Assembly (NCBI RefSeq): GCF_003334355.1
Contig: NZ_QOWP01000005.1
Origin: Escherichia coli
Lineage (GTDB): Bacteria; Pseudomonadota; Gammaproteobacteria; Enterobacterales; Enterobacteriaceae
Direction: 5' to 3' (one strand)
Length of the DNA: 64,000 nt
Shown here: in pieces, positions 3,766 to 58,065 of the stretch
Layout: each line of letters opens with the position of its first letter
How positions within the stretch are numbered: the stretch's first letter is position 1
The notes under the pieces: model-generated
The model's input: the letters and a program-made list of their open reading frames with translations, nothing else
Databases searched by the model: none
Told to the model about the DNA's origin: nothing
Made by a program: the position numbers and the translations under genes

Positions 3766-4338
3766 TTGACACTGTCATCGCAACATTATCTGGTGATCAC
3801 TGCGTTGGGTGCCGATCGCCCTGGAATTGTGAACACCATCACCCGTCATGTCAGTAGTTGCGGCTGTAATATTGAAGACAGTCGCCTGGCGATGCTGGGA
3901 GAAGAGTTCACGTTTATCATGCTGCTTTCCGGTTCATGGAATGCCATTACTCTGATTGAATCAACGTTACCGTTGAAAGGTGCAGAACTGGATCTTTTAA
4001 TCGTGATGAAGCGCACGACGGCGCGTCCGCGTCCGCCAATGCCAGCATCTGTCTGGGTTCAGGTCGATGTGGCAGACTCCCCGCATTTAATTGAACGCTT
4101 CACAGCACTTTTCGACGCGCATCATATGAACATTGCGGAGCTGGTGTCGCGCACGCAACCTGCTGAAAATGAACGGGCTGCGCAGTTGCATATTCAGATA
4201 ACCGCCCACAGCCCCGCATCTGCGGACGCAGCAAATATTGAGCAAGCGTTCAAAGCCCTATGTACAGAACTCAATGCACAAGGCAGTATTAACGTCGTCA
4301 ATTATTCCCAACATGATGAACAGGATGGAGTTAAGTAA
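3766..4338 (+). CDS. gcvR: Glycine cleavage system transcriptional repressor GcvR (ACT-domain protein)
   Basis: ORF 3700..4338; the conserved protein begins at TTG 3766 (…TLSSQHYLVITALGADRPGIV…), giving 190 aa. Its stop overlaps the bcp ATG by 1 nt. Confidence 0.85.
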   Translation: MTLSSQHYLVITALGADRPGIVNTITRHVSSCGCNIEDSRLAMLGEEFTFIMLLSGSWNAITLIESTLPLKGAELDLLIVMKRTTARPRPPMPASVWVQVDVADSPHLIERFTALFDAHHMNIAELVSRTQPAENERAAQLHIQITAHSPASADAANIEQAFKALCTELNAQGSINVVNYSQHDEQDGVK

Positions 4339-4808
4339 TGAATCCACTGAAAGCCGGTGATATCGCACCGAAATTTAGCTTGCCGGATCAAGACGGAGAA
4401 CAAGTTAATTTGACCGACTTCCAGGGACAGCGTGTTCTGGTTTATTTCTACCCGAAAGCCATGACCCCCGGCTGTACCGTACAGGCCTGCGGCTTACGCG
4501 ATAACATGGATGAGTTGAAAAAAGCGGGCGTTGATGTGCTGGGTATCAGCACCGATAAACCCGAAAAACTCTCCCGTTTTGCGGAAAAAGAGCTGCTTAA
4601 CTTTACGCTCCTGTCTGATGAGGACCACCAGGTGTGCGAACAATTCGGCGTCTGGGGTGAAAAGTCCTTCATGGGCAAAACCTACGATGGTATTCATCGC
4701 ATCAGCTTCCTGATTGACGCTGATGGCAAAATCGAACATGTCTTTGACGATTTCAAAACCAGCAATCACCACGACGTTGTGCTGAACTGGCTGAAAGAAC
4801 ACGCCTGA
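4338..4808 (+). CDS. bcp: Thiol peroxidase / peroxiredoxin Bcp
   Basis: 156-aa ORF MNPLKAGDIAPKFSLPDQDGEQV... with the peroxiredoxin active-site region TPGCTVQAC. Confidence 0.95.
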   Translation: MNPLKAGDIAPKFSLPDQDGEQVNLTDFQGQRVLVYFYPKAMTPGCTVQACGLRDNMDELKKAGVDVLGISTDKPEKLSRFAEKELLNFTLLSDEDHQVCEQFGVWGEKSFMGKTYDGIHRISFLIDADGKIEHVFDDFKTSNHHDVVLNWLKEHA

Positions 4809-5003
4809 TTACTCTGCTCCATTCCGTGCTGGCTGCGCTTGCGGCCAGCATACCTCACTTCTCGTGATCAAGATCACATTCTCGCTTTCCCCTGCGACAC
4901 GGGTGTCGAATCCATTTTTTGCTGAACGTTAATGACCATCATTTTTGTACCGTTCAGAATCCAGTCAATACATAACTTATTGAATATATTGAGTTAATCA
5001 GAA

Positions 5004-5019
5004 TGGCATCCTTTATGCA
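5004..5019 (+). promoter_or_regulatory. Sigma-54 (-24/-12) promoter of the hyf operon
   Basis: tggcatcctttatgca matches TGGCAC-N5-TTGCA with conserved GG and GC, about 40 bp upstream of hyfA; the operon also encodes the sigma-54 enhancer-binding protein HyfR. Confidence 0.6.
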
Positions 5020-5060
5020 ATATGAAATGCAATGTTTCATATCATTTTCAAGGAGCCGAC

Positions 5061-5678
5061 ATGAACCGCTTTGTGGTGGCCGAACCACTGTGGTGTACAG
5101 GATGTAATACCTGTCTCGCTGCCTGTTCGGACGTGCATAAAACGCAAGGTTTACAGCAACACCCGCGCCTGGCCCTGGCGAAGACGTCAACAATCACTGC
5201 CCCTGTCGTGTGTCATCACTGTGAGGAAGCCCCTTGCCTGCAGGTCTGCCCGGTCAATGCCATCTCTCAGAGGGATGATGCGATCCAACTCAACGAAAGC
5301 CTCTGTATTGGCTGCAAGCTTTGCGCCGTGGTCTGCCCATTTGGCGCAATCAGCGCTTCAGGAAGCCGTCCGGTGAATGCCCATGCGCAATATGTTTTTC
5401 AGGCTGAAGGCTCACTCAAAAACGGCGAAGAAAACGTGCTGCCCCAACATGCGTTGCTGCGCTGGGAACCGGGTGTCCAGACCGTCGCGGTGAAATGCGA
5501 CCTGTGTGATTTCTTGCCAGAAGGTCCGGCCTGCGTTCGCGCTTGCCCGAATCAGGCGTTACGGCTGATCACCGACGATAGCCTGCAACGTCAGATGAAA
5601 GAAAAACAGCGCCTTGCCGCAAGCTGGTTTGCCAATGGCGGGGAGGATCCCCTTTCCCTCACTCAGGAGCAACGCTAA
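5061..5678 (+). CDS. hyfA: Hydrogenase-4 component A, 4Fe-4S ferredoxin-type subunit
   Basis: ORF 5022..5678; start at MNRFVVAEPLWCTGCNTCLAAC gives 205 aa; several CxxCxxCxxxCP iron-sulfur motifs. Confidence 0.93.
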   Translation: MNRFVVAEPLWCTGCNTCLAACSDVHKTQGLQQHPRLALAKTSTITAPVVCHHCEEAPCLQVCPVNAISQRDDAIQLNESLCIGCKLCAVVCPFGAISASGSRPVNAHAQYVFQAEGSLKNGEENVLPQHALLRWEPGVQTVAVKCDLCDFLPEGPACVRACPNQALRLITDDSLQRQMKEKQRLAASWFANGGEDPLSLTQEQR

Positions 5679-7696
5679 TGGATGCCCTGCAATTATTAAC
5701 CTGGTCGCTGATCCTCTATCTGTTTGCCAGTCTGGCTTCGCTGTTTTTACTCGGTCTGGACAGACTGGCTATTAAGCTTTCCGGCATCACATCGCTGGTG
5801 GGCGGCGTGATTGGCATCATCAGCGGAATTACGCAATTACATGCTGGTGTAACTTTAGTCGCCCATTTTGCCACCCCTTTTGACTTTGCCGATTTAACCC
5901 TGCGAATGGATAGCCTCTCGGCATTTATGGTGCTGGTTATCTCCTTGCTGGTGGTGGTTTGTTCGCTCTATTCATTGACTTATATGCGCGAATACGAGGG
6001 CAAAGGCGCGGCGGCGATGGGCTTCTTTATGAATCTTTTCATCGCATCGATGGTTGCCCTGCTGGTGATGGACAACGCTTTTTGGTTCATCGTGCTGTTT
6101 GAAATGATGTCGCTGTCTTCCTGGTTTCTGGTCATTGCCAGGCAGGATAAAACGTCGATCAACGCTGGCATGCTCTACTTTTTTATCGCCCACGCCGGAT
6201 CGGTGCTGATAATGATCGCCTTCTTGCTGATGGGGCGCGAAAGCGGCAGCCTCGATTTTGCCAGTTTCCGCACGCTTTCACTTTCTCCGGGGCTGGCGTC
6301 GGCGGTGTTCCTGCTGGCCTTTTTCGGTTTTGGCGCGAAAGCCGGGATGATGCCGTTGCACAGCTGGTTGCCGCGCGCTCACCCTGCCGCACCATCGCAC
6401 GCTTCAGCGTTGATGTCTGGCGTAATGGTCAAAATCGGTATTTTCGGCATCCTGAAAGTGGCGATGGATCTGCTGGCGCAAACGGGTTTGCCGCTGTGGT
6501 GGGGCATTCTGGTGATGGCGATCGGCGCAATCTCCGCGCTCCTGGGCGTGCTGTATGCGCTGGCGGAACAGGATATCAAACGGCTACTGGCCTGGAGTAC
6601 CGTCGAAAACGTCGGCATTATTTTGCTGGCGGTCGGTGTGGCGATGGTCGGTCTGTCACTGCACGACCCGCTGCTCACCGTGGTTGGACTGCTCGGCGCA
6701 CTGTTTCATCTGCTCAACCATGCGCTGTTCAAAGGGCTGCTATTTCTCGGCGCGGGCGCGATTATTTCGCGTTTGCATACCCACGACATGGAAAAAATGG
6801 GGGCACTGGCGAAACGGATGCCGTGGACAGCCGCAGCATGCCTGATTGGTTGCCTGGCGATATCAGCCCTTCCTCCGCTGAATGGTTTTATCAGCGAATG
6901 GTACACCTGGCAGTCGCTGTTCTCACTAAGTCGTGTGGAAGCCGTAGCGCTACAACTTGCGGGTCCTATTGCTATGGTAATGCTGGCAGTCACTGGTGGG
7001 CTGGCAGTAATGTGCTTCGTAAAAATGTACGGTATTACTTTCTGTGGTGCGCCGCGCAGTACACACGCTGAAGAGGCACAGGAAGTGCCAAATACGATGA
7101 TCGTCGCCATGCTACTGCTCGCGGCACTCTGCGTATTAATTGCGCTTAGTGCCAGTTGGCTGGCACCGAAGATAATGCATATTGCCCATGCGTTTACCGA
7201 TACCCCTCCCGTCACTGTCGCCAGCGGAATAGCACTTGTACCCGGCACGTTTCATACACGGGTCACTCCTTCATTACTGTTGCTGTTACTACTGGCGATG
7301 CCTTTGCTGCCTGGCCTTTACTGGCTGTGGTGTCGTTCGCGCCGCGCAGCGTTTCGTCGCACAGGAGATGCCTGGGCATGCGGCTACAGCTGGGAAAATG
7401 CGATGGCCCCGTCAGGCAATGGCGTGATGCAGCCGCTGCGTGTGGTCTTTTCTGCGCTATTTCGTCTACGACAACAGCTCGACCCTACGCTGAGGCTAAA
7501 TAAAGGTCTTGCGCACGTCACCGCCAGGGCTCAGAGCACAGAACCCTTCTGGGATGAGCGGGTGATCCGCCCCATCGTGAGCGCCACCCAACGGCTGGCC
7601 AAAGAAATACAGCATCTGCAAAGCGGCGACTTTCGTCTCTATTGCCTGTATGTGGTCGCCGCACTGGTTGTGCTGCTAATCGCTATTGCCGTCTAA
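5678..7696 (+). CDS. hyfB: Hydrogenase-4 component B, NuoL/HycC-like membrane antiporter subunit
   Basis: 672-aa polytopic membrane ORF (MDALQLLTWSLILYLFASL...); its ATG overlaps the hyfA stop. Confidence 0.93.
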   Translation: MDALQLLTWSLILYLFASLASLFLLGLDRLAIKLSGITSLVGGVIGIISGITQLHAGVTLVAHFATPFDFADLTLRMDSLSAFMVLVISLLVVVCSLYSLTYMREYEGKGAAAMGFFMNLFIASMVALLVMDNAFWFIVLFEMMSLSSWFLVIARQDKTSINAGMLYFFIAHAGSVLIMIAFLLMGRESGSLDFASFRTLSLSPGLASAVFLLAFFGFGAKAGMMPLHSWLPRAHPAAPSHASALMSGVMVKIGIFGILKVAMDLLAQTGLPLWWGILVMAIGAISALLGVLYALAEQDIKRLLAWSTVENVGIILLAVGVAMVGLSLHDPLLTVVGLLGALFHLLNHALFKGLLFLGAGAIISRLHTHDMEKMGALAKRMPWTAAACLIGCLAISALPPLNGFISEWYTWQSLFSLSRVEAVALQLAGPIAMVMLAVTGGLAVMCFVKMYGITFCGAPRSTHAEEAQEVPNTMIVAMLLLAALCVLIALSASWLAPKIMHIAHAFTDTPPVTVASGIALVPGTFHTRVTPSLLLLLLLAMPLLPGLYWLWCRSRRAAFRRTGDAWACGYSWENAMAPSGNGVMQPLRVVFSALFRLRQQLDPTLRLNKGLAHVTARAQSTEPFWDERVIRPIVSATQRLAKEIQHLQSGDFRLYCLYVVAALVVLLIAIAV

Positions 7697-44487: not shown

Positions 44488-44590
44488 TTCTCTTTCTGAA
44501 TATAAAAATGAACCCTCAACGCTTCCCTCAATGTTTCGGGAGCTATGCGGGTTCAATCATACACGGGAAGCGAGGCGCTTCCCATCACGT
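44488..44590 (-). ncRNA. sroE: Possible SroE-type 3'-UTR-derived small RNA in the ispG-hisS spacer
   Basis: A 110-bp spacer between ispG and hisS in the same operon orientation; SroE is described at this position in E. coli K-12. I cannot verify processing sites or structure from sequence alone. Confidence 0.3.
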
Positions 44591-44592
44591 TA

Positions 44593-45711
44593 TTATTTTT
44601 CAACCTGCTGAACGTCAATTCGACGCGCTTCGTCCAGCTGACTGGCTTTCGCACGAATGCGTGCTTCCAGCTGGTCGATCATATCGTTGTTGTCCAGACG
44701 GTCTTTGCGCACGCCATCTTCATAGAGGCCGCTTTTCTTGTTGCCGCCGGTGACGCCGAGTGTAGAAACCAGCGCCTCACCTGGGCCATTCACCACGCAG
44801 CCGATAATCGAAACGTCCATCGGAGTGATGATATCTTCCAGGCGTTGCTCCAGCGCGTTAACCGTACCGATAACATCAAATTCCTGACGCGAACAGGTCG
44901 GGCAGGCGATGAAGTTGATCCCGCGCGAACGGATACGCAGCGATTTCAAAATATCGAAACCGACTTTGATCTCTTCGACCGGATCGGCCGCCAGTGATAC
45001 GCGCAGCGTGTCGCCGATGCCTTCAGACAGCAGCAGACCTAAACCAATGGCGGATTTTACTGCCCCGCTGCGTGCACCACCGGCTTCGGTGATCCCCAGA
45101 TGCAGCGGCTGATCGATCTGTTTTGCCAGCAAACGATAAGACTCAACAGCGAGGAAGACGTCAGACGCTTTCACGCTGACTTTGAACTGATCGAAGTTCA
45201 GGCGATCGAGATGATCAACATGGCGCATGGCGGATTCCAGCAACGCCTGCGGCGTCGGTTCGCCATACTTTTCTTGCAGATCTTTTTCCAGCGATCCGGC
45301 GTTAACGCCAATACGGATCGGAATGTTTTTATCGCGCGCACAGTCAACCACCATGCGAATACGCTCTTCATTACCGATATTGCCAGGGTTAATACGCAGA
45401 CAATCGACGCCGTATTCCGCTACTTTCAGTGCAATGCGATAGTCGAAGTGGATGTCAGCCACCAGCGGCACGTTAACCTGCTGTTTGATGAGTTTGAACG
45501 CTTCTGCCGCGTCCATCGTCGGTACGGATACACGGACGATATCAGCGCCAACGCGTTCCAGCGCCTTGATTTGATTGACCGTTGCTTCGACGTCTGTCGT
45601 ACGCGTATTGGTCATGGACTGTACGGCGATGGGAGCACCATCGCCAATCGGCACATTCCCAACGTAAATACGTGTTGATTTTCTACGTTGAATTGGAGCC
45701 TGGTTATGCAT
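44593..45711 (-). CDS. ispG: 4-hydroxy-3-methylbut-2-enyl diphosphate synthase (flavodoxin)
   Basis: 372-aa [39 protein letters not shown]... Confidence 0.97.
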
Positions 45712-45737: not shown

Positions 45738-46751
45738 TTACTGCGCCGGTGATTGTTCGGCATTGAGGGTCAGACGCGCAACCTGGTTAGTTCTGATAAA
45801 ACGACTCAGATCGACAGGTTTCCCTTGATACTGGATCTGTACTGCGGCTGGCGCACCAATTTTCAGTTTGTATGGTGCCTGGCCGGTTAAGTTCAAATTA
45901 CCGTCTTTACGCTGCATACCGCTAAACAATTTTTTACCGGTAGCATCAGTAACCTCCAGCCAGCAATCGGCAGTAAAGTTCATCACCAGCGCATTCGGAT
46001 CAGCCACCGGCGTGGTCACGCCAGCCTGATCGGTTGGCAACGGCGCAGCACCATCTGGCGTTGTTGCTGCCGTTGGTGCCGGGGTCGCGGCGGTATCAAC
46101 ATTTGCCTGCGAAGGCGAAACAACCGCATTCTGTTGCGGATCAACAGCTGGTGCTGGCGCAGTTACGGCAGGTGTTTGCGTGTTGGTTGCGGTAGTATCC
46201 ACAGACGCTGGCGGCGTGGACGTTGTAGCCGGGTCTGTAGTTGTCGACGTATTTAACGGAACACTCTGCCCCTGCTCGCTATTACTGCTCAGTTCCGCCG
46301 AAGATTGATCGGCCATAGTGGTGATCTCTTCCTGCTGAGCTTTGTGGTCTTGCCACCACCAGGCACCGCTCAGGCCGATAACCACAAACAACACCAGCCA
46401 GGTGAAGGTCATCAGCCAGCCGTCACGTTTTTTGCGGCGTTTACCGAGGGAAAAACTCTGCATCGGCGCAACTTTCGCAGCCCGTAGTGGAGCCTGCTTT
46501 TCCAGCCCTGGCAGCAGTTCTTCTTCTGGAATATGTACCAGACGCGCATAAGAGCGGATATATCCGCGCAGGAATGTTGAAGCAAGATCGGCGGGTGCCT
46601 TATCTTCTTCAATGTCGCGTACCGTGGAAACCTTCAGGCAAAGTCGCTCGGCAACGGCCTGCTGACTAAGTCCTAGTTGTTCGCGAGCATTACGCAGGCG
46701 AGCGCCGGTAGTAAGTGCTTCATTTTGGTCGTGCGTGGCTTCAGTATTCAT
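45738..46751 (-). CDS. rodZ: Cytoskeleton protein RodZ (HTH, TM anchor, periplasmic domain)
   Basis: 337-aa [40 protein letters not shown]... with TM segment [22 protein letters not shown] and a Pro/Thr/Ala-rich linker. Confidence 0.93.
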
Positions 46752-47035
46752 TCGCTGCAGGTACGTTTAAATGAGAATTGAGATGCCGGTGAACCATCAT
46801 GCTCACCCACACCGCGAAACATCCGTTAAGTTAACCGTTATCATACAGTATAAGACCGTCTGTGTGCTCGTGACAAAGCCCACATTCACTAAGGCTAACT
46901 TACTGTTGCATCGTTACATACTGCCTTAAAGTCAGCAAAAACGCACCGTTAATATTGACCAGACAATTGCAACTTAATACTTCATTCATAAAACATTACG
47001 CCACGGTACATAAAGTAACCGTGGCGTAATGGCTA

Positions 47036-48190
47036 TCAGACCGCTTTAATGTCGATGGCTTCACCCTGCATCCGTTTACGCAGGGTACGTTTCGTACGGT
47101 CGATAACATCGCCCGCCAACTGACCACAGGCAGCATCGATATCATCACCACGAGTTTTACGCACAATAGTGGTGAAACCGTAGCTCATCAGCACTTTTGA
47201 GAAACGGTCGATACGGCTGTTCGAGCTGCGTCCATACGGCGCACCCGGGAACGGGTTCCACGGGATCAAGTTGATCTTACACGGCGTATCTTTCAGCAGT
47301 TCCGCCAGTTGGTGCGCGTGTTCAGTGCCGTCGTTAACGTGGTCAAGCATCACATATTCAATAGTGACTCGGCCCTGATTGGCGTTGGATTTCTCCAGAT
47401 AACGGCGCACCGCAGCAAGGAACGTTTCGATATTGTACTTTTTGTTGATCGGCACAATTTCGTCACGAATTTCGTCGTTCGGCGCGTGCAGGGAAATTGC
47501 CAGTGCAACGTCGATCATATCGCCCAGTTTATCCAGCGCCGGAACTACACCGGAAGTGGAAAGCGTCACGCGACGTTTAGACAGACCAAAGCCAAAGTCA
47601 TCCAACATGATTTCCATCGCCGGAACGACGTTGTTCAGGTTGAGCAGCGGCTCGCCCATACCCATCATCACGACGTTAGTGATCGGGCGCTGACCGGTGA
47701 CTTTTGCTGCGCCGACGATTTTCGCCGCACGCCACACCTGGCCAATAATTTCCGATACCCGCAGGTTGCGGTTAAAGCCCTGCTGGGCGGTGGAACAGAA
47801 TTTACACTCCAGCGCACACCCCACCTGCGAAGAGACGCAGAGCGTGGCACGGTCGTCTTCCGGGATATACACCGTTTCGACGCGCTGATCGCCAACGGCG
47901 ATCGCCCATTTAATGGTGCCGTCGGATGAACGCTGTTCTTCAACCACTTCCGGTGCGCGGATTTCCGCCACCTCTTTCAGTTTGCCGCGCAACACTTTGT
48001 TGATGTCGGTCATCTCATCAAAGTTGTCGCAGCAATAGTGATACATCCACTTCATCACCTGATCGGCGCGGAAGGGTTTTTCACCTAAATCTTTAAAAAA
48101 CTCCCGCATCTGCTGACGGTTGAGATCCAGCAGGTTGATTTTTCCATCTTTCGTGGTGACGTTTTCAGGTGTGACTAATTGTTCAGACAT
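47036..48190 (-). CDS. rlmN: Dual-specificity rRNA/tRNA adenosine-C2 methyltransferase RlmN (radical SAM)
   Basis: 384-aa [35 protein letters not shown]... with the radical-SAM motif CALECKFC. Confidence 0.95.
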
Positions 48191-48339
48191 ATGCTATTCC
48201 GGCCTCGTTATTACACGTTATGGCCCCTGGAGGGTTGAAAAAAGAAACGCCCCGGTGAGCGGCTGCTCGTCCGGGGGCGCTGCATTGTACAAATTCTGGC
48301 GCACGGATGCCACGTTTGCACGCGGCATTTACGAAATTA

Positions 48340-48771
48340 TTAACGGGTGCGCGGGCACACTTCGCCTTCGCCAAAGAAATAAGCGATTTCGCGAGCGGCA
48401 GATTCGACGGAATCAGAACCGTGGGTACCGTTTTCGGTCAGGCTGTCAGCGTAATCAGCGCGCAGAGTACCAGCCAGTGCGTTTGCCGGATTGGTCGCGC
48501 CCAGCAGATCGCGGTGACGCTGAACGGCGTTTTCACCTTCCAGCACGGAAACCACGATCGGGCCAGAGGTCATGAATTCAACCAGACCATCAAAGAACGG
48601 TTTTCCATCGTGTTCAGCATAAAAGCCACGTGCCTGTTCAACGGTCAGGTGCAGCATTTTGGTGCCAACAATTTTGAACCCTGCAGCTTCAAAGCGCGCA
48701 AAGATATTACCAATGACGTTTTTTGCTACCGCGTTCGGTTTGATGATGGAAAAAGTACGTTCAATAGCCAT
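48340..48771 (-). CDS. ndk: Nucleoside diphosphate kinase
   Basis: 143-aa [42 protein letters not shown]... Confidence 0.97.
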
Positions 48772-48919
48772 TTTTACCTCTGTAAATTGTTCTGTTGTTG
48801 TCTGTACCAGCGTACGAGATGGCGCGGATTATAATGAGCAACAGGGCCGTTGACTATTGATGAAGGTAACATTTTTTTAAAATAAAATGAGTTTTAGCAA
48901 CAATCAGGGACAAAACAGA

Positions 48920-51232
48920 CTATTGCATGACAAATTTCACTGTCGCGATTTGCCCCACGTCATCCATCACCAGCAATTGATAATCACCTTTATCCGTCAA
49001 ATACAGGGTCACGTTGCGCCCGCGTTCAGTTAACGGTTCGCCATTCAGAAACCACCAGCGTTCACCTGCCCCTCCACTTGATTGCAACGGCAAAGTCGCT
49101 TCCGCTGCGCCCGGTAAACGTTTAATAATCGCGCCATCGCGAACGCCTGTCAGCTGCAGCGGGAGCTGGGCATCGTGACCGTATGGCGGGCAACTTGTCG
49201 AGGCCGGTGGTAAGCGCACAGCGCGACGTTCTGATGCGGGCAGCCAGGGTTCCAGCGGTAGCGGCCAGACATTTATCATTTCTTGTCGCGCTTGCGGGCA
49301 ATCAGCGGCAACACGTTTGCCATTTTCATCCAGCCAGATGGGGAAACGAATGCCATTAATGCCTTCCTGCTCCGGCAGTAATAGAGTTGGCGGCTGACTC
49401 CCGTCCAGCAGCCAGGTTGCCAGGCGGCGGCGACAGTTACCGTCACCTTCCGGCAAAGACTGTCCGCCCGGCCAGCAGATAACGCCACGAGTGACTGAGT
49501 TCGGGCGCGGGTCTTCCGGCAGATTCGCACTGCGCGACAGTAAGATATTATTGACCTGATTCAACAATGGTACGGCACTGGCAAAGCCAAACTGACCAAC
49601 AACGGGCGTGCCGTCCGGTCTGCCAGTCCAGATCCCAATGACATAGCGAGCGTTAACCCCAATCGCCCAGGCGTCACGATAGCCATAGCTGGTGCCCGTT
49701 TTCCATGCCAGTGGGGCGACGCGCGGCAAGGCACTATCCGGCAAGGGTTGCGCTTCATCAGCCATAATCCGGCGAATGATCCACGCCGCCCCCGACGACA
49801 TTAAAGGCCGTTCAAGCAGCGGATCGTCAGGCTGTAAGCGCAATTTGCCTGCCTTGCCGTGGCGAGCAAACGCGGTATACGCTGCCGCCATATCTTCCAG
49901 TTTTGCACCAGCGCCGCCGAGAATGAGTGAAAGATTCGGCGCAGCACCGTTGGGCAAATATAACGGCAATCCAACATTGCGTAACTTTGCCGCAAACCGT
50001 TTCGGTCCATAGGCTTCCAGCACCTGCACAGCAGGTAAGTTCAGCGAGCGCACCAGCGCCTCGCTCATGCTGATCGGGCCATGAAAACCGCTATCAAAGT
50101 TACCTGGTCGATAATCACCGGTGCGCCGGGGGACGTCTTGCAGCAGTGATGCCGGGTGGATCAAGCCTTCATCCAGCGCCAGACCATAAACAAACGGTTT
50201 GAGCACTGATCCTGGCGATCGGATCGAATTGACCATATCAACATGACCAAAGCGTGAATCATCGTTGAGATCAACCGATCCCACCCAGCCGCGAACACGC
50301 ATATCGGTATGATCAACCACGATCATCGCCAGTGAGCTGCGCGGTGGCAACCGCCCTTTCCAGTTTTGCGCCAGTTCTTCCAGACGTCGTTGAAGACCGG
50401 CATCCAACGTAGTAGTGATTTTGTCGCTTTTGCTTTTACCGAGCATCATGCGCGAAAACAGCGGTGCCAGTTGCGGCATTTGTCGGGGGGCCAGCCAGAT
50501 GGGTTCTTCCCTTGACTCTTTTACCTGCTCACGGGACCACACACCTTGCACGGCCATCCGTTCGAGCACTTTATTACGCGCGGCTTCGGCACGCTCCGGC
50601 CAACGATCCGGGCGAAGACGGCTGGGCGCTTGCGGCAAAACCGCCAGCATTGCCGCCTCGGAATAGCTTAAATTCGCAGGCGATTTTCCGAGATAAGCCC
50701 AACTTGCCGCACCGATCCCCTGCAACGTACCGCCAAACGGAGCGCGGTTAAGATACAAGGTCAGAATTTCACGCTTAGACAGATGCCATTCCAGTTGCAA
50801 CGCGCGCCAGAGCTGGCGAATTTTGCCGCCAAATGTTTTGGGGTGAGGATCAAGCAGACGAGCAACCTGCATAGTGAGCGTGCTGCCACCGGAAATAACC
50901 CGTCCCGAAGTGAGATCTTGCCATGCTGCGCGCGCCACCGAGAATGGATTCACCCCCGGATGCTTCCAGAACCAGCGATCTTCATAATTGATCAGCGCTT
51001 CAAGGTAACGTGGAGAAACATCTTCGATTGTTACCGGATAACGCCAGATGCCGTCAGCATCGGCGAAGCGCCAGAGCGGCGTACCATCCTGCGCCACGAC
51101 CACTCGTGCGGGATTGACTTCATGCAGCGGTAGAGGCCAGAGTTTATCTGCTCCCCACGCTGCAAAAAAAAGGAGAAAGGGCGCGGCTGCCAACGTTATC
51201 CAGCAGCCGCGTTTGGTTAACAAGCGAGGCAT
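48920..51232 (-). CDS. pbpC: Penicillin-binding protein 1C (glycosyltransferase/transpeptidase)
   Basis: 770-aa ORF MPRLLTKRGCWITLAAAPFLLFFAAWGADKLWPLPL...; its start codon abuts the yfhM stop codon. Confidence 0.93.
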   Translation of the reverse strand: MPRLLTKRGCWITLAAAPFLLFFAAWGADKLWPLPLHEVNPARVVVAQDGTPLWRFADADGIWRYPVTIEDVSPRYLEALINYEDRWFWKHPGVNPFSVARAAWQDLTSGRVISGGSTLTMQVARLLDPHPKTFGGKIRQLWRALQLEWHLSKREILTLYLNRAPFGGTLQGIGAASWAYLGKSPANLSYSEAAMLAVLPQAPSRLRPDRWPERAEAARNKVLERMAVQGVWSREQVKESREEPIWLAPRQMPQLAPLFSRMMLGKSKSDKITTTLDAGLQRRLEELAQNWKGRLPPRSSLAMIVVDHTDMRVRGWVGSVDLNDDSRFGHVDMVNSIRSPGSVLKPFVYGLALDEGLIHPASLLQDVPRRTGDYRPGNFDSGFHGPISMSEALVRSLNLPAVQVLEAYGPKRFAAKLRNVGLPLYLPNGAAPNLSLILGGAGAKLEDMAAAYTAFARHGKAGKLRLQPDDPLLERPLMSSGAAWIIRRIMADEAQPLPDSALPRVAPLAWKTGTSYGYRDAWAIGVNARYVIGIWTGRPDGTPVVGQFGFASAVPLLNQVNNILLSRSANLPEDPRPNSVTRGVICWPGGQSLPEGDGNCRRRLATWLLDGSQPPTLLLPEQEGINGIRFPIWLDENGKRVAADCPQARQEMINVWPLPLEPWLPASERRAVRLPPASTSCPPYGHDAQLPLQLTGVRDGAIIKRLPGAAEATLPLQSSGGAGERWWFLNGEPLTERGRNVTLYLTDKGDYQLLVMDDVGQIATVKFVMQ

Positions 51233-54200
51233 TTACGGTCTGACAATCAGCAGATCTTCAGCCGCGCCGGTCGCCCGCCATTGGGGAACATACATTGATT
51301 CCACCATCGGTTGCGGTACCTGATACGTTCCCGGCGTCACCGCCCGCGCCAGATACACCAGCGTTACCGGTTGGTATTCATCAACGGCAACCGCCGCCAC
51401 AAAGCGATCGTCACGGAACTCAATGTGCTTAATGCTCGCCTGCTGCATCTGGTTCAGTAAGTTCTGCACTTCGCCACCACTTTGCTCCAGGCTGGCGCTA
51501 CCGTTCGCCAGATTCTGGTTTTCCAGTTCCAGACCCGCAGGCAGCAGATCCACGACTAACGCATCCGGCACGCTGTTACTGGCTTTTACCTGCAACCACA
51601 CCAGCACCAGATCGCCGCTACGTAACGAGTCCAGCGATTTGCTCTTACCATCAGTACCAAGAATATGACGCTCGATTTGCAGCACATTGTTCGCCGGTAA
51701 AGGTGCGGATTGCGGATAACCGCTGGCATCCATACGCAACCATAACGGCTGATCGCCACTGTTGCTCACCTGCAAGGTGACAAGTTGATCGCTATTCAGA
51801 TTGCTGTTTTGCGCTTTCTCGCCTGTCAGCTGCTCAGCTGAGAAAGAGGTTTGCGCCTGCCATTTACCGGGTAAATCCTGAATCGTACGGGCAGCCAGGA
51901 ACAACGCGTTACTTTCCTGCGTCGATAGCCAGCGTTCACCAAACGCCTGCTGCGAAAGTGTGTTCAGCAAAGTGTACTGCTCATCGGGTAGCAGTTTATT
52001 TTCTTCCAGCAAGGAGAGCATTAACGCGTTGTCGCGCAGTGAACTACCGTAATCACCCAGCCATATCCGCTCATCACTATTACGCGGCGTTTTCAGCGCC
52101 AGCGCAATCGCTTCTTCACCACGCGTCGCATCACCCATGGTTTTCAGCGCAACGCCAAGTTGCAGCAGCGGTAAACCAGAAGCGGCATCTGCACGATGCT
52201 CCCAGATTTCACGCAGCGCACCCAGCGGAGCCTTTTGCTGACGGGCCAACACCAGCGCAGCGTAAGACTGTACGGCGAATTTACTGGCTTTGAGATTATC
52301 CGCGTACGGGATCGACATCATGCCCGGATCTTGTAAATAGCGCAGCAGACGCTCATTACCCCGGTTAATGGCGTCTGTCGGCACGCTGTAACCCTGTTCG
52401 CCTGCGCGGACCAGGAAATCCATCACGTAAGCCGTCAGCCAGTACTCTTCGTCACCGTTTTTATCCCACAGCGCAAAGCCGCCGTTATCACGTTGCATTT
52501 GCAGCAAACGGGAAATGCCGATATCGACCGATGCACGGCGTTTCTCATCACTGTCGCCTTTGATGCCCAACGCCTGCAGTTGGGCTGCGTTGGTATAAAG
52601 TGACGGAAACAGGCCGCTGGCGGTTTGCTCAAGACAGCCGTACGGATACGCTTTTAACTCTTTGATATAACGTGCGATGTTCAGCGGTGGTTTGCCGCTC
52701 AACAACAATTGCCCTTCCAGCGTAACAGGCGAGAAGTTTTGCAATCCATCCGCCGGAATCGCCCATGTCTCACCAGGCTGTAACGCCGTACCGTAATTAA
52801 CCGTTTGTGCCGGGAACGCCGGACGGACGCCGATTTTCCACTGCTTATGCTGATCGGCAACGGTTTCACCCGGTAACGCTAACCCGCTAATGGTGGCCTG
52901 AATTTCTCCATCGCCATAACCCGGCAATGCTCGCACCGGGATAAACAGCGTAGTACGCACACCTGGCGCTAATTCAACGGCTGCGGGTGAATCGCTGACC
53001 AGTTCAAGCAAACCACTGGCGGTCAGGGCAACGTTCAGTTTTTGCGGTTTATCGGTAAGATTAGTGATATCCAGCGTCAGACGCGAGGTATCGCCACTCG
53101 CCATAAAGCGCGGCATGTTCAGTTCAGCAATCACCGGTGCGGCAACTATCACTTTACTTTCGTTGCTACCGAAGTCATCTGCCGTCCAGGCTTGCGCCAT
53201 GACGCGCAATTCACCGTTAAAATCGCCAATCGGCAGTGTAACCGAGCCTTCGCCCTGTTCGTTGAGCGTTACCGGCAGCGCCTGCTGCACGACAATATTG
53301 ACGTGATTGACCGGCGGTTTACCACCACGTTTCAGCTCATCACCATCGCCACCGAAACGCAGAGCTGCCAGACGCCCCTGACCTTCAATAACCTGACCGT
53401 AAATATCGTAAATGTCTGCGCCATAGCGTTTCTGACCAAAGAACGCCTGCCACGGATCTGGCGTGACGTAGTCAGTAATATTCAGCACACCACTATCAAC
53501 GGCAGACACCAGCACATTCACCTGTTTAGGCTTCTCGCCATTTTTAGTGCTGGCTTTAATTTTCACGGTTAATGGTTGATTGGGACGCATTTTTGCTGGT
53601 GTTTCCAGCGCCAGATCGAGGCGACGGTTTTCATCGCCAAGCGGCAGATGCAACACACCAACCGCGCGTTTTGGCGTCGCGGAGCGAGATTTATCGCCAG
53701 GACGTACCACCAGCGTACTTAAATACAGATCATGACGATTCCAGGTTTTATCGACCGGAATCGTCAGATCCAGCCCTTGAGCCCGAACATCAATCTCTTG
53801 CCACCACAGCGGCCCTTCACTGGACTCGACCATCGCATAACCTTTACCCGCCGTTGGCGCGGCGATATGCAACTTAATGGTGTCGCCAGGGCGATAACTG
53901 GCTTTATCCAGTTTCAGCGTGACACGGTCGGGTCGCACTGCGCCGCTACCGTCGCTGTTGTCCTGCCAGCTATAGCCAGCCCAGAAACGAACACTACTGA
54001 CCGCTTCATTCGGCGCTTTGACTTCCAGACGATAAGCGCCCCACTCTACCGGAAAACTGACCTTGCCGGTTTCGTCCGCTTTCAGATCCAGAGTTTGTTC
54101 ATTTTCGATCAGATCTTTTTGATCAAACTGTGACTGCCAGCCTTCATCTTCTGACCAGTTCCAGTAGTAATCGCGGCGTTCGCGAATCAGGCGCACCTGC

Positions 54201-56194
54201 AAGCCCGACACGGCTTTTTTCACGCCTTGCGCATCGCTATAAACGATGTCAAAAGCGGCGTTACTGCCTTCATCAACAATGGGCTGTTTCACCGTGCTGT
54301 CAGTACGATAATCGTAAACCGATTTCGAGGCGAACTGCGGACGGATCCCCGGCAATGCATCGGCAGGCCAGATAGCCTGCTCAGCGCGGCGCGTCACCGG
54401 GCGACCGCCCGATTCCAGCAAACTACCCTGGAAAATAACCTGTAATGGGGAATGCGTTTCCTTCCACTGGCTTTCTGTAGAAACTTCGCCGCGCCCTTTA
54501 TCATCCAGCGTCAACTGAACTTCATCCAGCGTGCGGGAAAGATTTTCGGCAGCTATATCGCCGAATTCAAAACCAGGTAAGGCTGACACAGCTTCACGCA
54601 GTGGGCGCAGGAAAAGTTGCCCTTGCAAAGTATTACCATTAGCAGGTGCACCATACAGGTAGTACCCCACCACGGAGAATTTCACTTCATCTTTCGGCGT
54701 TAGCGGGGTTTTTTCACCGGTCAGATTCAGCGCCATGCGCTCTGGCATAAAATCTTCGACGTGGAAATCCCACATCCGATACTGGTTATCGCCCGTGTTA
54801 GCGCGAATATGCCACATACCGGTTGCCGCATTGCTATCGAGTGGCCAGGTAAAGTGGTAGAGGCCATTCTCCGGCTGACTAACGACGCTCCTGAGTACCT
54901 GCCCATCGGGTTTAATCACGTCTAACTTGATGGGTTGATTGGGCAACGCTTTACCGTCTGCATCACGCAGCAAACCATTGAGGATTACCGTTTCACCTGG
55001 GCGATAAAGATCGCGTGGGCCAAACATGAAAAACTGTTTGCTATAGCCTGGCGCGCCAGCAATGTTAAATTCTGCTAAGTCCAGCGCCGGAAGTTTTAAA
55101 TCGAGTAGCGTTGTCTGACCGTCTTTACGCGCCAACAGTAATGCCGCGTTTTTATCATTTTCCAGCTGCACATGCCCCTGAGCGTCACTGGTTGCCTGAG
55201 TCAGAGTCTGCCCTTTCTCATTTAATAAAGAGACTTCAATTCCTTGCTGGGCCGCGCCGTTTTCCAGACTTTGGGTAAAGATATCCAGACGATTGTGATA
55301 ACGGTGAGCTGAAACGCCGATATCACTTAACGTAAACAGCGTCGCGGGATTACTGTAATCGTAACGTCCAGCCTGATTCATCACAGCCAGATACACGCCC
55401 GCCTGCTGAAGCGGTTTGATATCGCCCAGCGGCAGCAATAATTTTTCACGGGTGTTACGCGCAGGATTGAGATCAAACCGTCCGGTGTAGACCAGATCCG
55501 CCATCTGCAGCAGTTTGTCTGACTGCCAGTTCGCCAGCGAATTGCGGTATTCCCATTGGCTAATGAATGCTGGCAGAGATTCTGGCTTAACGCGGAAGAA
55601 GTTAACATCGACATTATTAACGTTGAGCGCCATTACCGGCAGCCCTTCAACGACTTTGCCAGGCAGCAGCGAACCACGGCTGGCAAAACCGACGCTGGGT
55701 TGGATGTCGCGGGTAGTTATAGTTTTTTCGTAATCTTTACTGAAGGTTGCGTTGTTGAGTGCTTTGACCTCCTTGCCAATAGTAACGATCAAATCACGTT
55801 TCGGTTCGAGGTGGCGTAAACGTAACTCTTTAAGATTATCTGACAGCTCCCAGGCACCATCCACTTTGCCGCTTTTTTTATCGACGACATGAATAACGCG
55901 TGAGAAATCCTGATCCGGGTCGAGAGGGATGGAGAACGTCAGCACCAGCGTGGCTGCACCATCAAGTTGGACTTCAGAGAGATCCAGCAATGTCAGCACC
56001 TTACCGGCACTCTGTTGGGCCAGTTTTTGTCTCTCCGGCACGGAGAGTTTTGCTGAACTCGCGTTTTCTGAAGAGGCCGCTTTAGTAACTTCAGAAGGCG
56101 CATCTTTTTTCACCGCTGTTGGCGCGTTATCGTTGTTGTCGCACCCTGCCAGCGCCAGCATTAGCATGCAGGCGGCTACGCGTAACTTTTTCAT
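51233..56194 (-). CDS. yfhM: Alpha-2-macroglobulin family lipoprotein (ECAM/YfhM)
   Basis: 1653-aa ORF with lipoprotein signal (MKKLRVAACMLMLALAGCDNN) and a thioester motif (GCLEQ). Confidence 0.93.
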   Translation of the reverse strand: MKKLRVAACMLMLALAGCDNNDNAPTAVKKDAPSEVTKAASSENASSAKLSVPERQKLAQQSAGKVLTLLDLSEVQLDGAATLVLTFSIPLDPDQDFSRVIHVVDKKSGKVDGAWELSDNLKELRLRHLEPKRDLIVTIGKEVKALNNATFSKDYEKTITTRDIQPSVGFASRGSLLPGKVVEGLPVMALNVNNVDVNFFRVKPESLPAFISQWEYRNSLANWQSDKLLQMADLVYTGRFDLNPARNTREKLLLPLGDIKPLQQAGVYLAVMNQAGRYDYSNPATLFTLSDIGVSAHRYHNRLDIFTQSLENGAAQQGIEVSLLNEKGQTLTQATSDAQGHVQLENDKNAALLLARKDGQTTLLDLKLPALDLAEFNIAGAPGYSKQFFMFGPRDLYRPGETVILNGLLRDADGKALPNQPIKLDVIKPDGQVLRSVVSQPENGLYHFTWPLDSNAATGMWHIRANTGDNQYRMWDFHVEDFMPERMALNLTGEKTPLTPKDEVKFSVVGYYLYGAPANGNTLQGQLFLRPLREAVSALPGFEFGDIAAENLSRTLDEVQLTLDDKGRGEVSTESQWKETHSPLQVIFQGSLLESGGRPVTRRAEQAIWPADALPGIRPQFASKSVYDYRTDSTVKQPIVDEGSNAAFDIVYSDAQGVKKAVSGLQVRLIRERRDYYWNWSEDEGWQSQFDQKDLIENEQTLDLKADETGKVSFPVEWGAYRLEVKAPNEAVSSVRFWAGYSWQDNSDGSGAVRPDRVTLKLDKASYRPGDTIKLHIAAPTAGKGYAMVESSEGPLWWQEIDVRAQGLDLTIPVDKTWNRHDLYLSTLVVRPGDKSRSATPKRAVGVLHLPLGDENRRLDLALETPAKMRPNQPLTVKIKASTKNGEKPKQVNVLVSAVDSGVLNITDYVTPDPWQAFFGQKRYGADIYDIYGQVIEGQGRLAALRFGGDGDELKRGGKPPVNHVNIVVQQALPVTLNEQGEGSVTLPIGDFNGELRVMAQAWTADDFGSNESKVIVAAPVIAELNMPRFMASGDTSRLTLDITNLTDKPQKLNVALTASGLLELVSDSPAAVELAPGVRTTLFIPVRALPGYGDGEIQATISGLALPGETVADQHKQWKIGVRPAFPAQTVNYGTALQPGETWAIPADGLQNFSPVTLEGQLLLSGKPPLNIARYIKELKAYPYGCLEQTASGLFPSLYTNAAQLQALGIKGDSDEKRRASVDIGISRLLQMQRDNGGFALWDKNGDEEYWLTAYVMDFLVRAGEQGYSVPTDAINRGNERLLRYLQDPGMMSIPYADNLKASKFAVQSYAALVLARQQKAPLGALREIWEHRADAASGLPLLQLGVALKTMGDATRGEEAIALALKTPRNSDERIWLGDYGSSLRDNALMLSLLEENKLLPDEQYTLLNTLSQQAFGERWLSTQESNALFLAARTIQDLPGKWQAQTSFSAEQLTGEKAQNSNLNSDQLVTLQVSNSGDQPLWLRMDASGYPQSAPLPANNVLQIERHILGTDGKSKSLDSLRSGDLVLVWLQVKASNSVPDALVVDLLPAGLELENQNLANGSASLEQSGGEVQNLLNQMQQASIKHIEFRDDRFVAAVAVDEYQPVTLVYLARAVTPGTYQVPQPMVESMYVPQWRATGAAEDLLIVRP

Positions 56195-56400
56195 TTTTCA
56201 TCCCTGCCACAATGGCCCGTTAGCAACGTCGAATAATTATTATGCGTGAGAATTTACGTTATGTAATTCAGTATCACGCCCATACAATCCGAATTTTAGT
56301 GAGAATTGTGGCTCAGACAGCCAAATCAGCCTCTTTTGCTTGTCGCTTTTCACTAAACATCCGACAATTTAGCCTAACCCCGGCAAAAATGGAGATGCCT

Positions 56401-57246
56401 ATGTCCACGACATGGTTTGTAGGAGCCGACTGGCTCGCCGAACATATTGATGACCCGGAAATTCAGATTATCGATGCCCGCATGGCGTCGCCTGGACAGG
56501 AGGATCGTAACGTTGCTCAGGAGTATCTGAATGGACATATTCCCGGCGCAGTGTTTTTTGATATCGAAGCGCTTTCTGATCACACTTCCCCGCTTCCGCA
56601 CATGCTGCCGCGCCCGGAAACGTTCGCCGTGGCGATGCGTGAATTAGGCGTTAACCAGGATAAGCACCTGATTGTCTATGACGAAGGTAATCTTTTCTCA
56701 GCCCCACGAGCATGGTGGATGCTGCGCACCTTTGGTGTAGAGAAAGTGTCGATTCTGGGGGGTGGACTTGCAGGCTGGCAGCGCGATGATCTGCTGTTAG
56801 AAGAAGGTGCAGTAGAGCTGCCGGAAGGAGAGTTTAACGCCGCGTTTAATCCTGAAGCCGTGGTGAAAGTAACCGATGTATTATTGGCAAGCCATGAAAA
56901 TACGGCGCAAATTATTGATGCCCGCCCGGCTGCACGTTTTAACGCAGAAGTTGATGAACCTCGCCCAGGTTTACGTCGCGGACATATTCCCGGAGCACTG
57001 AATGTTCCGTGGACGGAACTGGTGCGCGAAGGCGAACTAAAAACGACCGATGAACTGGATGCGATATTTTTTGGTCGCGGCGTCAGCTACGACAAACCAA
57101 TTATCGTCAGCTGCGGCTCTGGTGTAACGGCAGCCGTGGTTTTGTTAGCACTCGCGACGCTGGATGTGCCAAACGTGAAACTGTACGACGGCGCATGGAG
57201 TGAATGGGGCGCGCGGGCAGATTTACCGGTTGAGCCAGTGAAATAA
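56401..57246 (+). CDS. sseA: 3-mercaptopyruvate sulfurtransferase (rhodanese-domain protein)
   Basis: Track ORF 56242..57246; start at MSTTWFVGADWLAEHIDDPEIQIIDARM gives 281 aa; active-site CGSGVTA. Confidence 0.93.
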   Translation: MSTTWFVGADWLAEHIDDPEIQIIDARMASPGQEDRNVAQEYLNGHIPGAVFFDIEALSDHTSPLPHMLPRPETFAVAMRELGVNQDKHLIVYDEGNLFSAPRAWWMLRTFGVEKVSILGGGLAGWQRDDLLLEEGAVELPEGEFNAAFNPEAVVKVTDVLLASHENTAQIIDARPAARFNAEVDEPRPGLRRGHIPGALNVPWTELVREGELKTTDELDAIFFGRGVSYDKPIIVSCGSGVTAAVVLLALATLDVPNVKLYDGAWSEWGARADLPVEPVK

Positions 57247-57292: not shown

Positions 57293-57590
57293 TGCTAGTC
57301 TGGTTCGCGGCCTTTCCAGCAGGTTGACTTGTGTTACATGAGCAACGCAGGTGCTTCACAGCAAAACAATACTCACCAGTAACTCTCTTTTTGTCAAGCA
57401 AAAGAGAGTAATTATTGTTTATTTAGCGTATTATCGACACCGGCCCTTTCCGCCGTGTTCGGTAATAAAATAACCTGGCTTATTAGTCCGAATTCAGACA
57501 AATATAAACAAATCCTGCTCAAAATTAAAAATTCTAACCGGTAAAAGATATTACTTAAACATGTAAATTCACTTTCCTTTAAAAAACAAA
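57287..57590 (+). ncRNA. ryfA: RyfA-like small RNA region (copy 1 of a tandemly duplicated unit)
   Basis: About 300 nt bounded by two intrinsic terminators, no ORF over 20 codons with a credible start; contains the 10-bp perfect inverted repeat actctctttt/aaaagagagt. A RyfA sRNA is described between sseA and sseB in E. coli. Boundaries approximate; strand inferred. Confidence 0.4.
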
Positions 57591-57618
57591 AAACCGCCAA
57601 AATCAGGCGGTTTTTTGT
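57585..57618 (+). terminator. Intrinsic terminator between the two repeat copies
   Basis: aaaaaacaaaaaa-ccgcc-aaaatca-ggcgg-tttttt. Confidence 0.7.
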
Positions 57619-57620
57619 TG

Positions 57621-57790
57621 CTGGTCCGGTTCGCGGCCTTTCCAGCAGGTTGTATTACCGTAGTAATGCAAGCGCGTCTCAGCGGAGACAATACTCGCCA
57701 GTAACTCTCTTTTTGTCAAGCAAAAGAGAGTTATTATTGTTCTGTTAGTGTATTATCCACTGCGGCCCTTTCCGCCGTCTCGCAAACGGG
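57621..57790 (+). repeat. Second copy of the RyfA-like unit (direct repeat of 57296-57465, period about 325 bp)
   Basis: Shared blocks ggttcgcggcctttccagcaggtt, caatactc[a/g]ccagtaactctctttttgtcaagcaaaagagagt[a/t]attattgtt and cggccctttccgccgt in the same order and spacing as copy 1, with diverged stretches in between. Confidence 0.7.
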
Positions 57791-57907
57791 CGCTGGCTTT
57801 AGGAAAGGATGTTCCGTGGCCGTAAATGCAGGTGTTTCACAGCGCTTGCTATCGCGGCAATATCGCCAGTGGTGCTGTCGTGATGCGGTCTTCGCATGGA
57901 CCGCACA

Positions 57908-58033
57908 ATGAAGATACGGTGCTTTTGTATCGTACTTATTGTTTCTGGTGCGCTGTTAACCGAGGTAAATAATAACCGGAGTCTCTCCGGCGATAATTTA
58001 CTGGTGGTTAACAACCTTCAGAGCAGCAAGTAA
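57908..58033 (+). CDS. Candidate small hydrophobic protein (41 aa), possible type I toxin of RyfA/TimP type
   Basis: ATG 57908 to TAA 58031-58033: MKIRCFCIVLIVSGALLTEVNNNRSLSGDNLLVVNNLQSSK; hydrophobic N-terminal stretch, followed directly by a terminator hairpin. No strong Shine-Dalgarno. Speculative. Confidence 0.25.
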   Translation: MKIRCFCIVLIVSGALLTEVNNNRSLSGDNLLVVNNLQSSK

Positions 58034-58036
58034 GCC

Positions 58037-58065
58037 CGAATGCCGCCCTTTGGGCGGCATATTTT
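58037..58065 (+). terminator. Intrinsic terminator at the end of the RyfA-like region
   Basis: Hairpin atgccgccc-ttt-gggcggcat followed by atttt, immediately before the sseB stop on the opposite strand. Confidence 0.65.

Follow-up and report, generated by a model that had tools for sequence, protein, structure and literature searches.

In a 64,000-nucleotide stretch of Escherichia coli DNA (contig NZ_QOWP01000005.1, hereafter the window), the gene of the alpha-2-macroglobulin (A2M) YfhM is directly followed by pbpC, the gene of a penicillin-binding protein (PBP). This locus raises two questions: whether the pair is an intact copy of a known arrangement, and whether the missing gap says anything about how both proteins are made and used. 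The first can be answered with confidence. Positions 48920-56194 represent, with a probability of about 0.93, the canonical, ordinary and intact E. coli yfhM-pbpC pair. The identity of the genes and the mechanism of YfhM are near certain, and the locus is already known in full, including the gene, the protein structure, the operon arrangement and the functional hypothesis.

The two genes and their proteins

The interval is filled exactly by two long minus-strand open reading frames (ORFs), as read from the ORF list and the translations:

51233..56194, minus strand: yfhM coding sequence (ECAM, a type I bacterial A2M), 1653 amino acids plus TAA stop, ATG start
48920..51232, minus strand: pbpC coding sequence (penicillin-binding protein 1C, PBP1C, a class A PBP), 770 amino acids plus stop, ATG start
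51230..51235, minus strand: junction TAAATG, made of the yfhM TAA (51235-51233) and then the pbpC ATG (51232-51230), with 0 intergenic bases

A first-pass annotation of the window had placed the two genes in direct contact at these positions, without stating that both lie on the minus strand, and the minus-strand sequence bears this out. Read across the junction, it is GTCAGACCG TAA ATG CCTCGCTTG, with AGACCG TAA ATG CCTCGC as the immediate context. Both translations are uninterrupted by internal stops or frameshifts. Together with a direct comparison to K-12, this upholds the earlier statement that the pair is intact.

The locus was compared base by base with K-12 MG1655 over 13.8 kb. Only four of the 29 differences are found inside yfhM and pbpC. 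The yfhM gene differs from that of MG1655 by two synonymous nucleotides (54713 and 54785), and all 1653 of 1653 amino acids are identical to K-12 YfhM (WP_000736312.1), with the same lipobox, bait region, CLEQ, RDDR/ESMY motifs and location between sseA and pbpC. PbpC equals its K-12 counterpart in length, in its three domains, in its catalytic motifs and in the abutting junction, and is distinguished from it by L23F, within the membrane anchor, and by H744Y, which falls in the C-terminal domain. In view of these few differences, the window is assigned to E. coli and, for this locus, placed near K-12. Disruption or variation of the pair relative to K-12, by a frameshift, an insertion sequence (IS) or loss of the thioester, is ruled out by the direct comparison. 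In the K-12 MG1655 annotation, the order is ispG-rodZ-rlmN-ndk-pbpC-yfhM on one strand, followed by sseA, timP, sseB and pepB, and the coordinates of the pair abut likewise.

A 7.8-kb query (48700-56500) was also compared by megablast with all complete E. coli RefSeq genomes. It matches 5426 of 5426 genomes, always on the chromosome, with at least 80% of the query covered in 5424. The listed matching records are annotated as yfhM (alpha2-macroglobulin) and pbpC (peptidoglycan glycosyltransferase PbpC), flanked by sseA and ndk. Since the locus matches every genome and the listed records carry these annotations, yfhM and pbpC are recognized as real genes and not as chance ORFs.

The sequence of YfhM contains all elements of a thioester-bearing A2M. 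Its N-terminus, MKKLRVAACMLMLALAGC-DNN, carries a lipoprotein signal peptide whose lipobox, LAGC, includes Cys18. The Pfam domains follow in the order bMG1, A2M_bMG2, bMG3, MG2, bMG5, bMG6, A2M_BRD, A2M, TED_complement, CUB_A2MG and bMG10, all with E<=1e-7, the A2M_BRD match covering residues 759-905. The elements most relevant to function are:

56141..56194, minus strand: signal peptide and lipobox, MKKLRVAACMLMLALAG followed by C; Cys18 is the lipidated residue and Asp19 is next (read from the translation)
53369..53428, minus strand: bait-region core, YfhM residues 923-942 (RYGADIYDIYGQVIEGQGRL), at the C-terminal edge of the Pfam A2M_BRD match
52625..52636, minus strand: thioester motif CLEQ (Cys1187-Gln1190), inside the TED_complement match, in the sequence context YPYGCLEQTASG

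According to the Lol-sorting rules, an aspartate at position +2 of a lipoprotein is a signal for retention in the inner membrane. ECAM is indeed anchored in the inner membrane (PMC4498604), in agreement with the Asp at +2 of YfhM. Arg923-Leu942 is the disordered, cleaved bait segment of elastase-cleaved ECAM, and the ECAM thioester carries identical residue numbers, 1187-1190 (PMC4498604). In YfhM, Cys1187 is the sole cysteine of the mature protein. The C-terminal macroglobulin (MG) domain has kept RDDR at 1594 and ESMY at 1632, the latter corresponding to the EXMY motif; RDDR and EXMY shield the thioester (PMC4498604). A PDB sequence search with YfhM retrieved the solved E. coli protein (4rtd, 4ziq and 5a42) at E=0 and more than 3650 bits. 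No NCBIfam family was matched by YfhM at E<=0.001, which reflects the library, as the Pfam and PDB searches identify the protein unambiguously.

With a lipobox cysteine, the full MG, bait, thioester, CUB and C-terminal MG set, CXEQ and RDDR/EXMY, YfhM has the sequence features of a type I A2M. Thioester formation and covalent protease trapping have been reported for the identical protein (Doan & Gettins 2008; Neves 2012, as cited in PMC3328433 and PMC4498604). The 1653-residue lipoprotein with lipobox and GCLEQ thioester described in the first-pass annotation is thus present (LAGC with Cys18; YGCLEQ). The integrity check proposed there found CLEQ intact at residues 1187-1190, and the domain search found all of the predicted A2M and PBP glycosyltransferase and transpeptidase domains, whose absence would have spoken against the reading.

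PbpC scores 1566.3 bits over residues 1-770 against the NCBIfam PbpC equivalog NF008414 (cut-off 1121) and 917.5 bits against TIGR02073, PBP_1c (cut-off 494.2). Its features are:

51149..51205, minus strand: N-terminal hydrophobic membrane anchor, about residues 10-28 (CWITLAAAPFLLFFAAWGA), from sequence inspection
50555..51052, minus strand: GT51 peptidoglycan glycosyltransferase domain, residues 61-226 (Pfam Transgly, E=4.9e-52)
49676..50317, minus strand: transpeptidase (penicillin-binding) domain, residues 306-519 (Pfam Transpeptidase, E=7.7e-12)
48932..49174, minus strand: BiPBP_C C-terminal domain, a PBP1C-specific extension, residues 687-767 (Pfam PF06832, E=2.2e-16)

PBP1c is anchored through a single transmembrane region (PMC3328433). 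The GT51 motifs of PbpC are intact, with EDRWFWKHPG at 84 (catalytic-Glu motif EDxxFxxHxG) and GGSTLTMQ at 115 (GxSTxTxQ). The penicillin-binding motifs SVLK 342 (SxxK), SLN 396 (SxN) and KTG 511 are intact as well, and by these motifs the domain is transpeptidase-like. No PBP1C structure was found in the PDB sequence search with PbpC; among solved chains, PBP1A and PBP1B proteins come nearest. According to work attributed to Schiffer and Holtje (1999), PBP1C is reportedly active as a glycosyltransferase, binds a limited set of beta-lactams and is no substitute for PBP1A or PBP1B.

The zero-gap junction and expression of pbpC

The second question concerns the junction. A single transcript carrying yfhM and pbpC is likely from the layout of the locus. 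Within the 22 bases upstream of the pbpC ATG, nothing pairs with the anti-Shine-Dalgarno sequence (+0.4 kcal/mol), compared to -6.0 kcal/mol for yfhM and -7.1 kcal/mol for ndk. Because the gap is zero and a Shine-Dalgarno sequence is missing, termination-reinitiation coupling would be the most economical route to pbpC translation. Translational coupling of pbpC to yfhM is therefore plausible and, on balance, favored.

Genes that abut directly are frequent in E. coli operons, which leaves room for another explanation, in which pbpC is translated from its own initiation signals and the junction merely reflects compact gene packing. The absent anti-Shine-Dalgarno complementarity argues against it, and so does the behavior of the junction within the species. 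A 300-base query centered on the junction matched 5410 E. coli genomes, 577 of them at 80-90% identity and 550 at 90-95%. In the divergent E. coli AGR5151 and SF-173, about 10% of the positions of this query differ; the annotated abutment is kept and TAAATG is invariant. The changes in both strains cluster in the PbpC anchor (T13M, L20I, L21I, F22I, F23L and G27A) and exchange one hydrophobic residue for another, unlike the YfhM C-terminus, which is almost unchanged. Across E. coli lineages, the anchor varies more than any other part of the junction, and its codons more than any other part of the locus, with six or seven conservative hydrophobic substitutions at residues 13-27. The L23F difference of the window from K-12 also falls within this variable segment.

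More distant sequences do speak for independent initiation. Homologues were searched with the C-terminal 655 residues of YfhM, which retrieved relatives down to about 47% identity, and the genomic context of four of them was compared:

L006, 58% identity: Transgly+Transpeptidase+BiPBP_C gene downstream on the same strand after a 34-base gap, then ndk and rlmN
L007, 54% identity: Transgly+Transpeptidase+BiPBP_C gene downstream on the same strand after a 116-base gap; sseB upstream, ndk downstream
L008, 52% identity: Transgly+Transpeptidase+BiPBP_C gene on the same strand after a 527-base gap with a small opposite-strand gene; no enterobacterial synteny
L005, 47% identity: no adjacent PBP1C gene

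Relatives with spacers of 34-527 bases must initiate pbpC independently. The first two spacers contain hairpin-forming sequence and the third the opposite-strand gene, which weighs against an obligatory coupling. A zero-gap junction as a universal feature of the module is ruled out by the 34-, 116- and 527-base gaps. Among the sequences examined, the exact abutment appears as a local feature, confined to E. coli lineages. For E. coli itself, independent initiation with mere gene packing is considered unlikely.

One candidate promoter precedes yfhM:

56239..56267, minus strand: sigma-70-like promoter candidate ATTACA-17-CATAAT, weak, from a consensus scan; it precedes the yfhM ATG by 45 bases

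The divergent yfhM/sseA intergenic region comprises 206 bases, in which the consensus promoter scan gave 7 sites compared to 6.1 expected by chance. Counts from the promoter and terminator scans are no higher than in shuffled sequence, and the candidates are suggestive only. A terminator-like hairpin was not found on the minus strand between pbpC and ndk, and between yfhM and pbpC it is impossible with a zero gap. A good promoter-like site belonging to ndk itself lies at 48856-48828 (TAGTCA-17-TATAAT), and downstream of this gene there is a terminator-like site at 48261-48248.

Genomic SELEX detected an intragenic RpoE (sigma-E) holoenzyme peak in yfhM, 6.1-fold and at roughly window position 55100, the mapping being uncertain (PMC5493296). 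A sigma-E promoter scan of both strands of 48700-56500 found no site (0.36 matches expected by chance), using the pattern GGAACTT with at most one mismatch, a 15-17-base spacer and TCN[A/G]A.

On the other side of the spacer, the mechanically called sseA ORF (56242-57246, plus strand, 334 amino acids) begins 159 bases ahead of the start codon annotated in K-12 (window 56401, 281 amino acids). This longer ORF overlaps the candidate yfhM promoter, and its start is probably not the real one. No Rfam RNA family was matched inside 48920-56194. The flanking matches are the known E. coli small RNAs IS128, ryfA and sroE (57422-57630, plus strand; 57762-58065, plus strand; 44502-44593, minus strand), and in K-12 a small toxin gene, timP, is annotated within the ryfA region.

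Some further variation was seen around the pair. The genes rodZ and rlmN (window 45873-47924) hold 23 of the 29 MG1655 differences, compared to four in the 7.3 kb of pbpC and yfhM, and this distribution looks like the boundary of a recombination patch near ndk. In the duck isolates E. coli HL15 and SF10, an IS5-family transposase is annotated within the region and the 7.8-kb match is broken in two.

The proposed partnership of YfhM and PBP1C

A joint role of the adjacent genes has been proposed in the literature. Type I, thioester-containing bacterial A2M genes usually adjoin pbpC or share an operon with it, and ECAM traps proteases in the periplasm, is anchored in the inner membrane and has a functional thioester. 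In the proposal of Budd et al. (2004), A2M neutralizes invading proteases while PBP1c repairs the peptidoglycan (all as given in PMC3735191, PMC3328433, PMC4498604 and PMC5764988). The defence and repair module named in the first-pass annotation corresponds to this published hypothesis and stands as such.

For the window, the best explanation runs as follows. YfhM, a monomeric lipoprotein, is held at the inner membrane on its periplasmic side. A protease reaching the periplasm cuts the exposed bait region around residues 923-942. The C-terminal MG domain is then freed from the thioester domain, exposing the Cys1187-Gln1190 thioester, which links covalently to the protease and traps it. This is the activation route described for ECAM, from bait cleavage over displacement of the C-terminal MG domain to thioester exposure (PMC4498604). 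PbpC is an inner-membrane-anchored class A PBP that combines peptidoglycan glycosyltransferase and transpeptidase-like domains with a C-terminal domain specific to the family. Both genes very probably share one transcript, from a promoter in the yfhM/sseA spacer. Since pbpC begins directly after the yfhM stop and lacks a separate ribosome-binding site, its translation probably relies on ribosomes that come straight from the end of yfhM.

Only protease trapping by YfhM has been demonstrated experimentally in the literature, and cooperation with PBP1C is a hypothesis. Several observations weigh against a joint module. No interaction or phenotype linking YfhM and PBP1C is reported in PMC3735191, PMC3328433, PMC4498604 and PMC5764988, where the link is given as a suggestion. 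E. coli NCTC9100 lacks pbpC and ndk, yet its yfhM is intact, and YfhM can therefore persist without its partner. In this strain (L004, NZ_LR134239.1, 3344-3520; window ~48200-51214), the deletion takes almost all of pbpC and all of ndk, leaving about 19 bases after the yfhM stop, followed by the rlmN upstream region. The A2M homologue at 47% identity (L005) has no adjoining PBP1C gene. In that locus (4001-5944), about 3 kb upstream of the called 647-amino-acid fragment have no called gene, and the A2M gene may be disrupted.

These points can be accommodated if the two products are independent despite a shared transcript. YfhM would then be a stand-alone protease trap and PBP1C an accessory glycosyltransferase with a role unrelated to protease attack, their adjacency persisting through inheritance and a common envelope-related expression. 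The hypothetical status of the link in PMC3328433, PMC4498604 and PMC5764988, the loss of pbpC but not of yfhM in NCTC9100, the solitary homologue and the spacing of 0 to 527 bases, once (L008) with an opposite-strand gene in between, all fit this explanation. Other evidence argues against it. The A2M gene is followed by a PBP1C gene on the same strand in three of the four distant relatives (52-58% identity), one of which lacks the ndk/rlmN synteny. Co-occurrence across many bacteria is described in the literature (PMC3735191, PMC3328433), and both proteins are located on the periplasmic face of the inner membrane (PMC4498604). Independent products have a real, though minority, chance. Functional cooperation of YfhM and PBP1C in protease neutralization and wall repair comes close to an even chance and stays slightly on the doubtful side of it.

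A stricter version can be formulated, in which the invariant TAAATG and the missing ribosome-binding site would make E. coli PbpC synthesis depend entirely on completed translation of the very long yfhM message, fixing a low PbpC:YfhM ratio for an inner-membrane complex, with the relatives that have spacers being uncoupled. If true, strict coupling and a complex would recast the 20-year-old defence and repair hypothesis as a stoichiometric-complex model. This version is regarded as quite improbable.

The window itself shows that the pair is intact and otherwise neither supports nor undermines the cooperation hypothesis. The locus belongs to the textbook-annotated core genome of E. coli, crystal structures exist for exactly this YfhM, and the finding carries little weight as a discovery. 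The value of the result is that the earlier reading is confirmed and the feature is ordinary. Only two points are mildly new: the exact abutment of E. coli is absent in distant relatives, and the variation at the junction centers on the PbpC membrane anchor.

Comparison with related macroglobulins

As three of the four distant relatives keep a PBP1C gene downstream of A2M, the adjacency is conserved far outside E. coli, in independent confirmation of the co-occurrence described in the literature. The homologue search also returned a 978-amino-acid database protein (P0048) that combines the C-terminal A2M domains (TED, CUB and bMG10) with Transgly, apparently either a fusion of A2M with PBP1C or a gene call that reads through.

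A close known system outside the species is Sa-A2M of Salmonella enterica (PDB 4u48), a full-length homologue and an orthologue in another genus, which matches residues 18-1653 of YfhM with 3037 bits in the PDB search. Sa-A2M is a type I thioester A2M encoded adjacent to PBP1c (PMC5764988). Type II A2Ms, such as MagD of P. aeruginosa and YfaS of E. coli, have the macroglobulin fold, the bait region and the periplasmic, inner-membrane-associated location in common with YfhM (PMC3735191, PMC5764988). In contrast, they have neither the lipobox cysteine nor the CXEQ thioester, and are encoded in a six-gene mag-type operon rather than beside pbpC (PMC3735191, PMC5764988). Because the lipobox, the thioester motif and the pbpC neighbor are all present, the YfhM encoded in the window is classified as type I.

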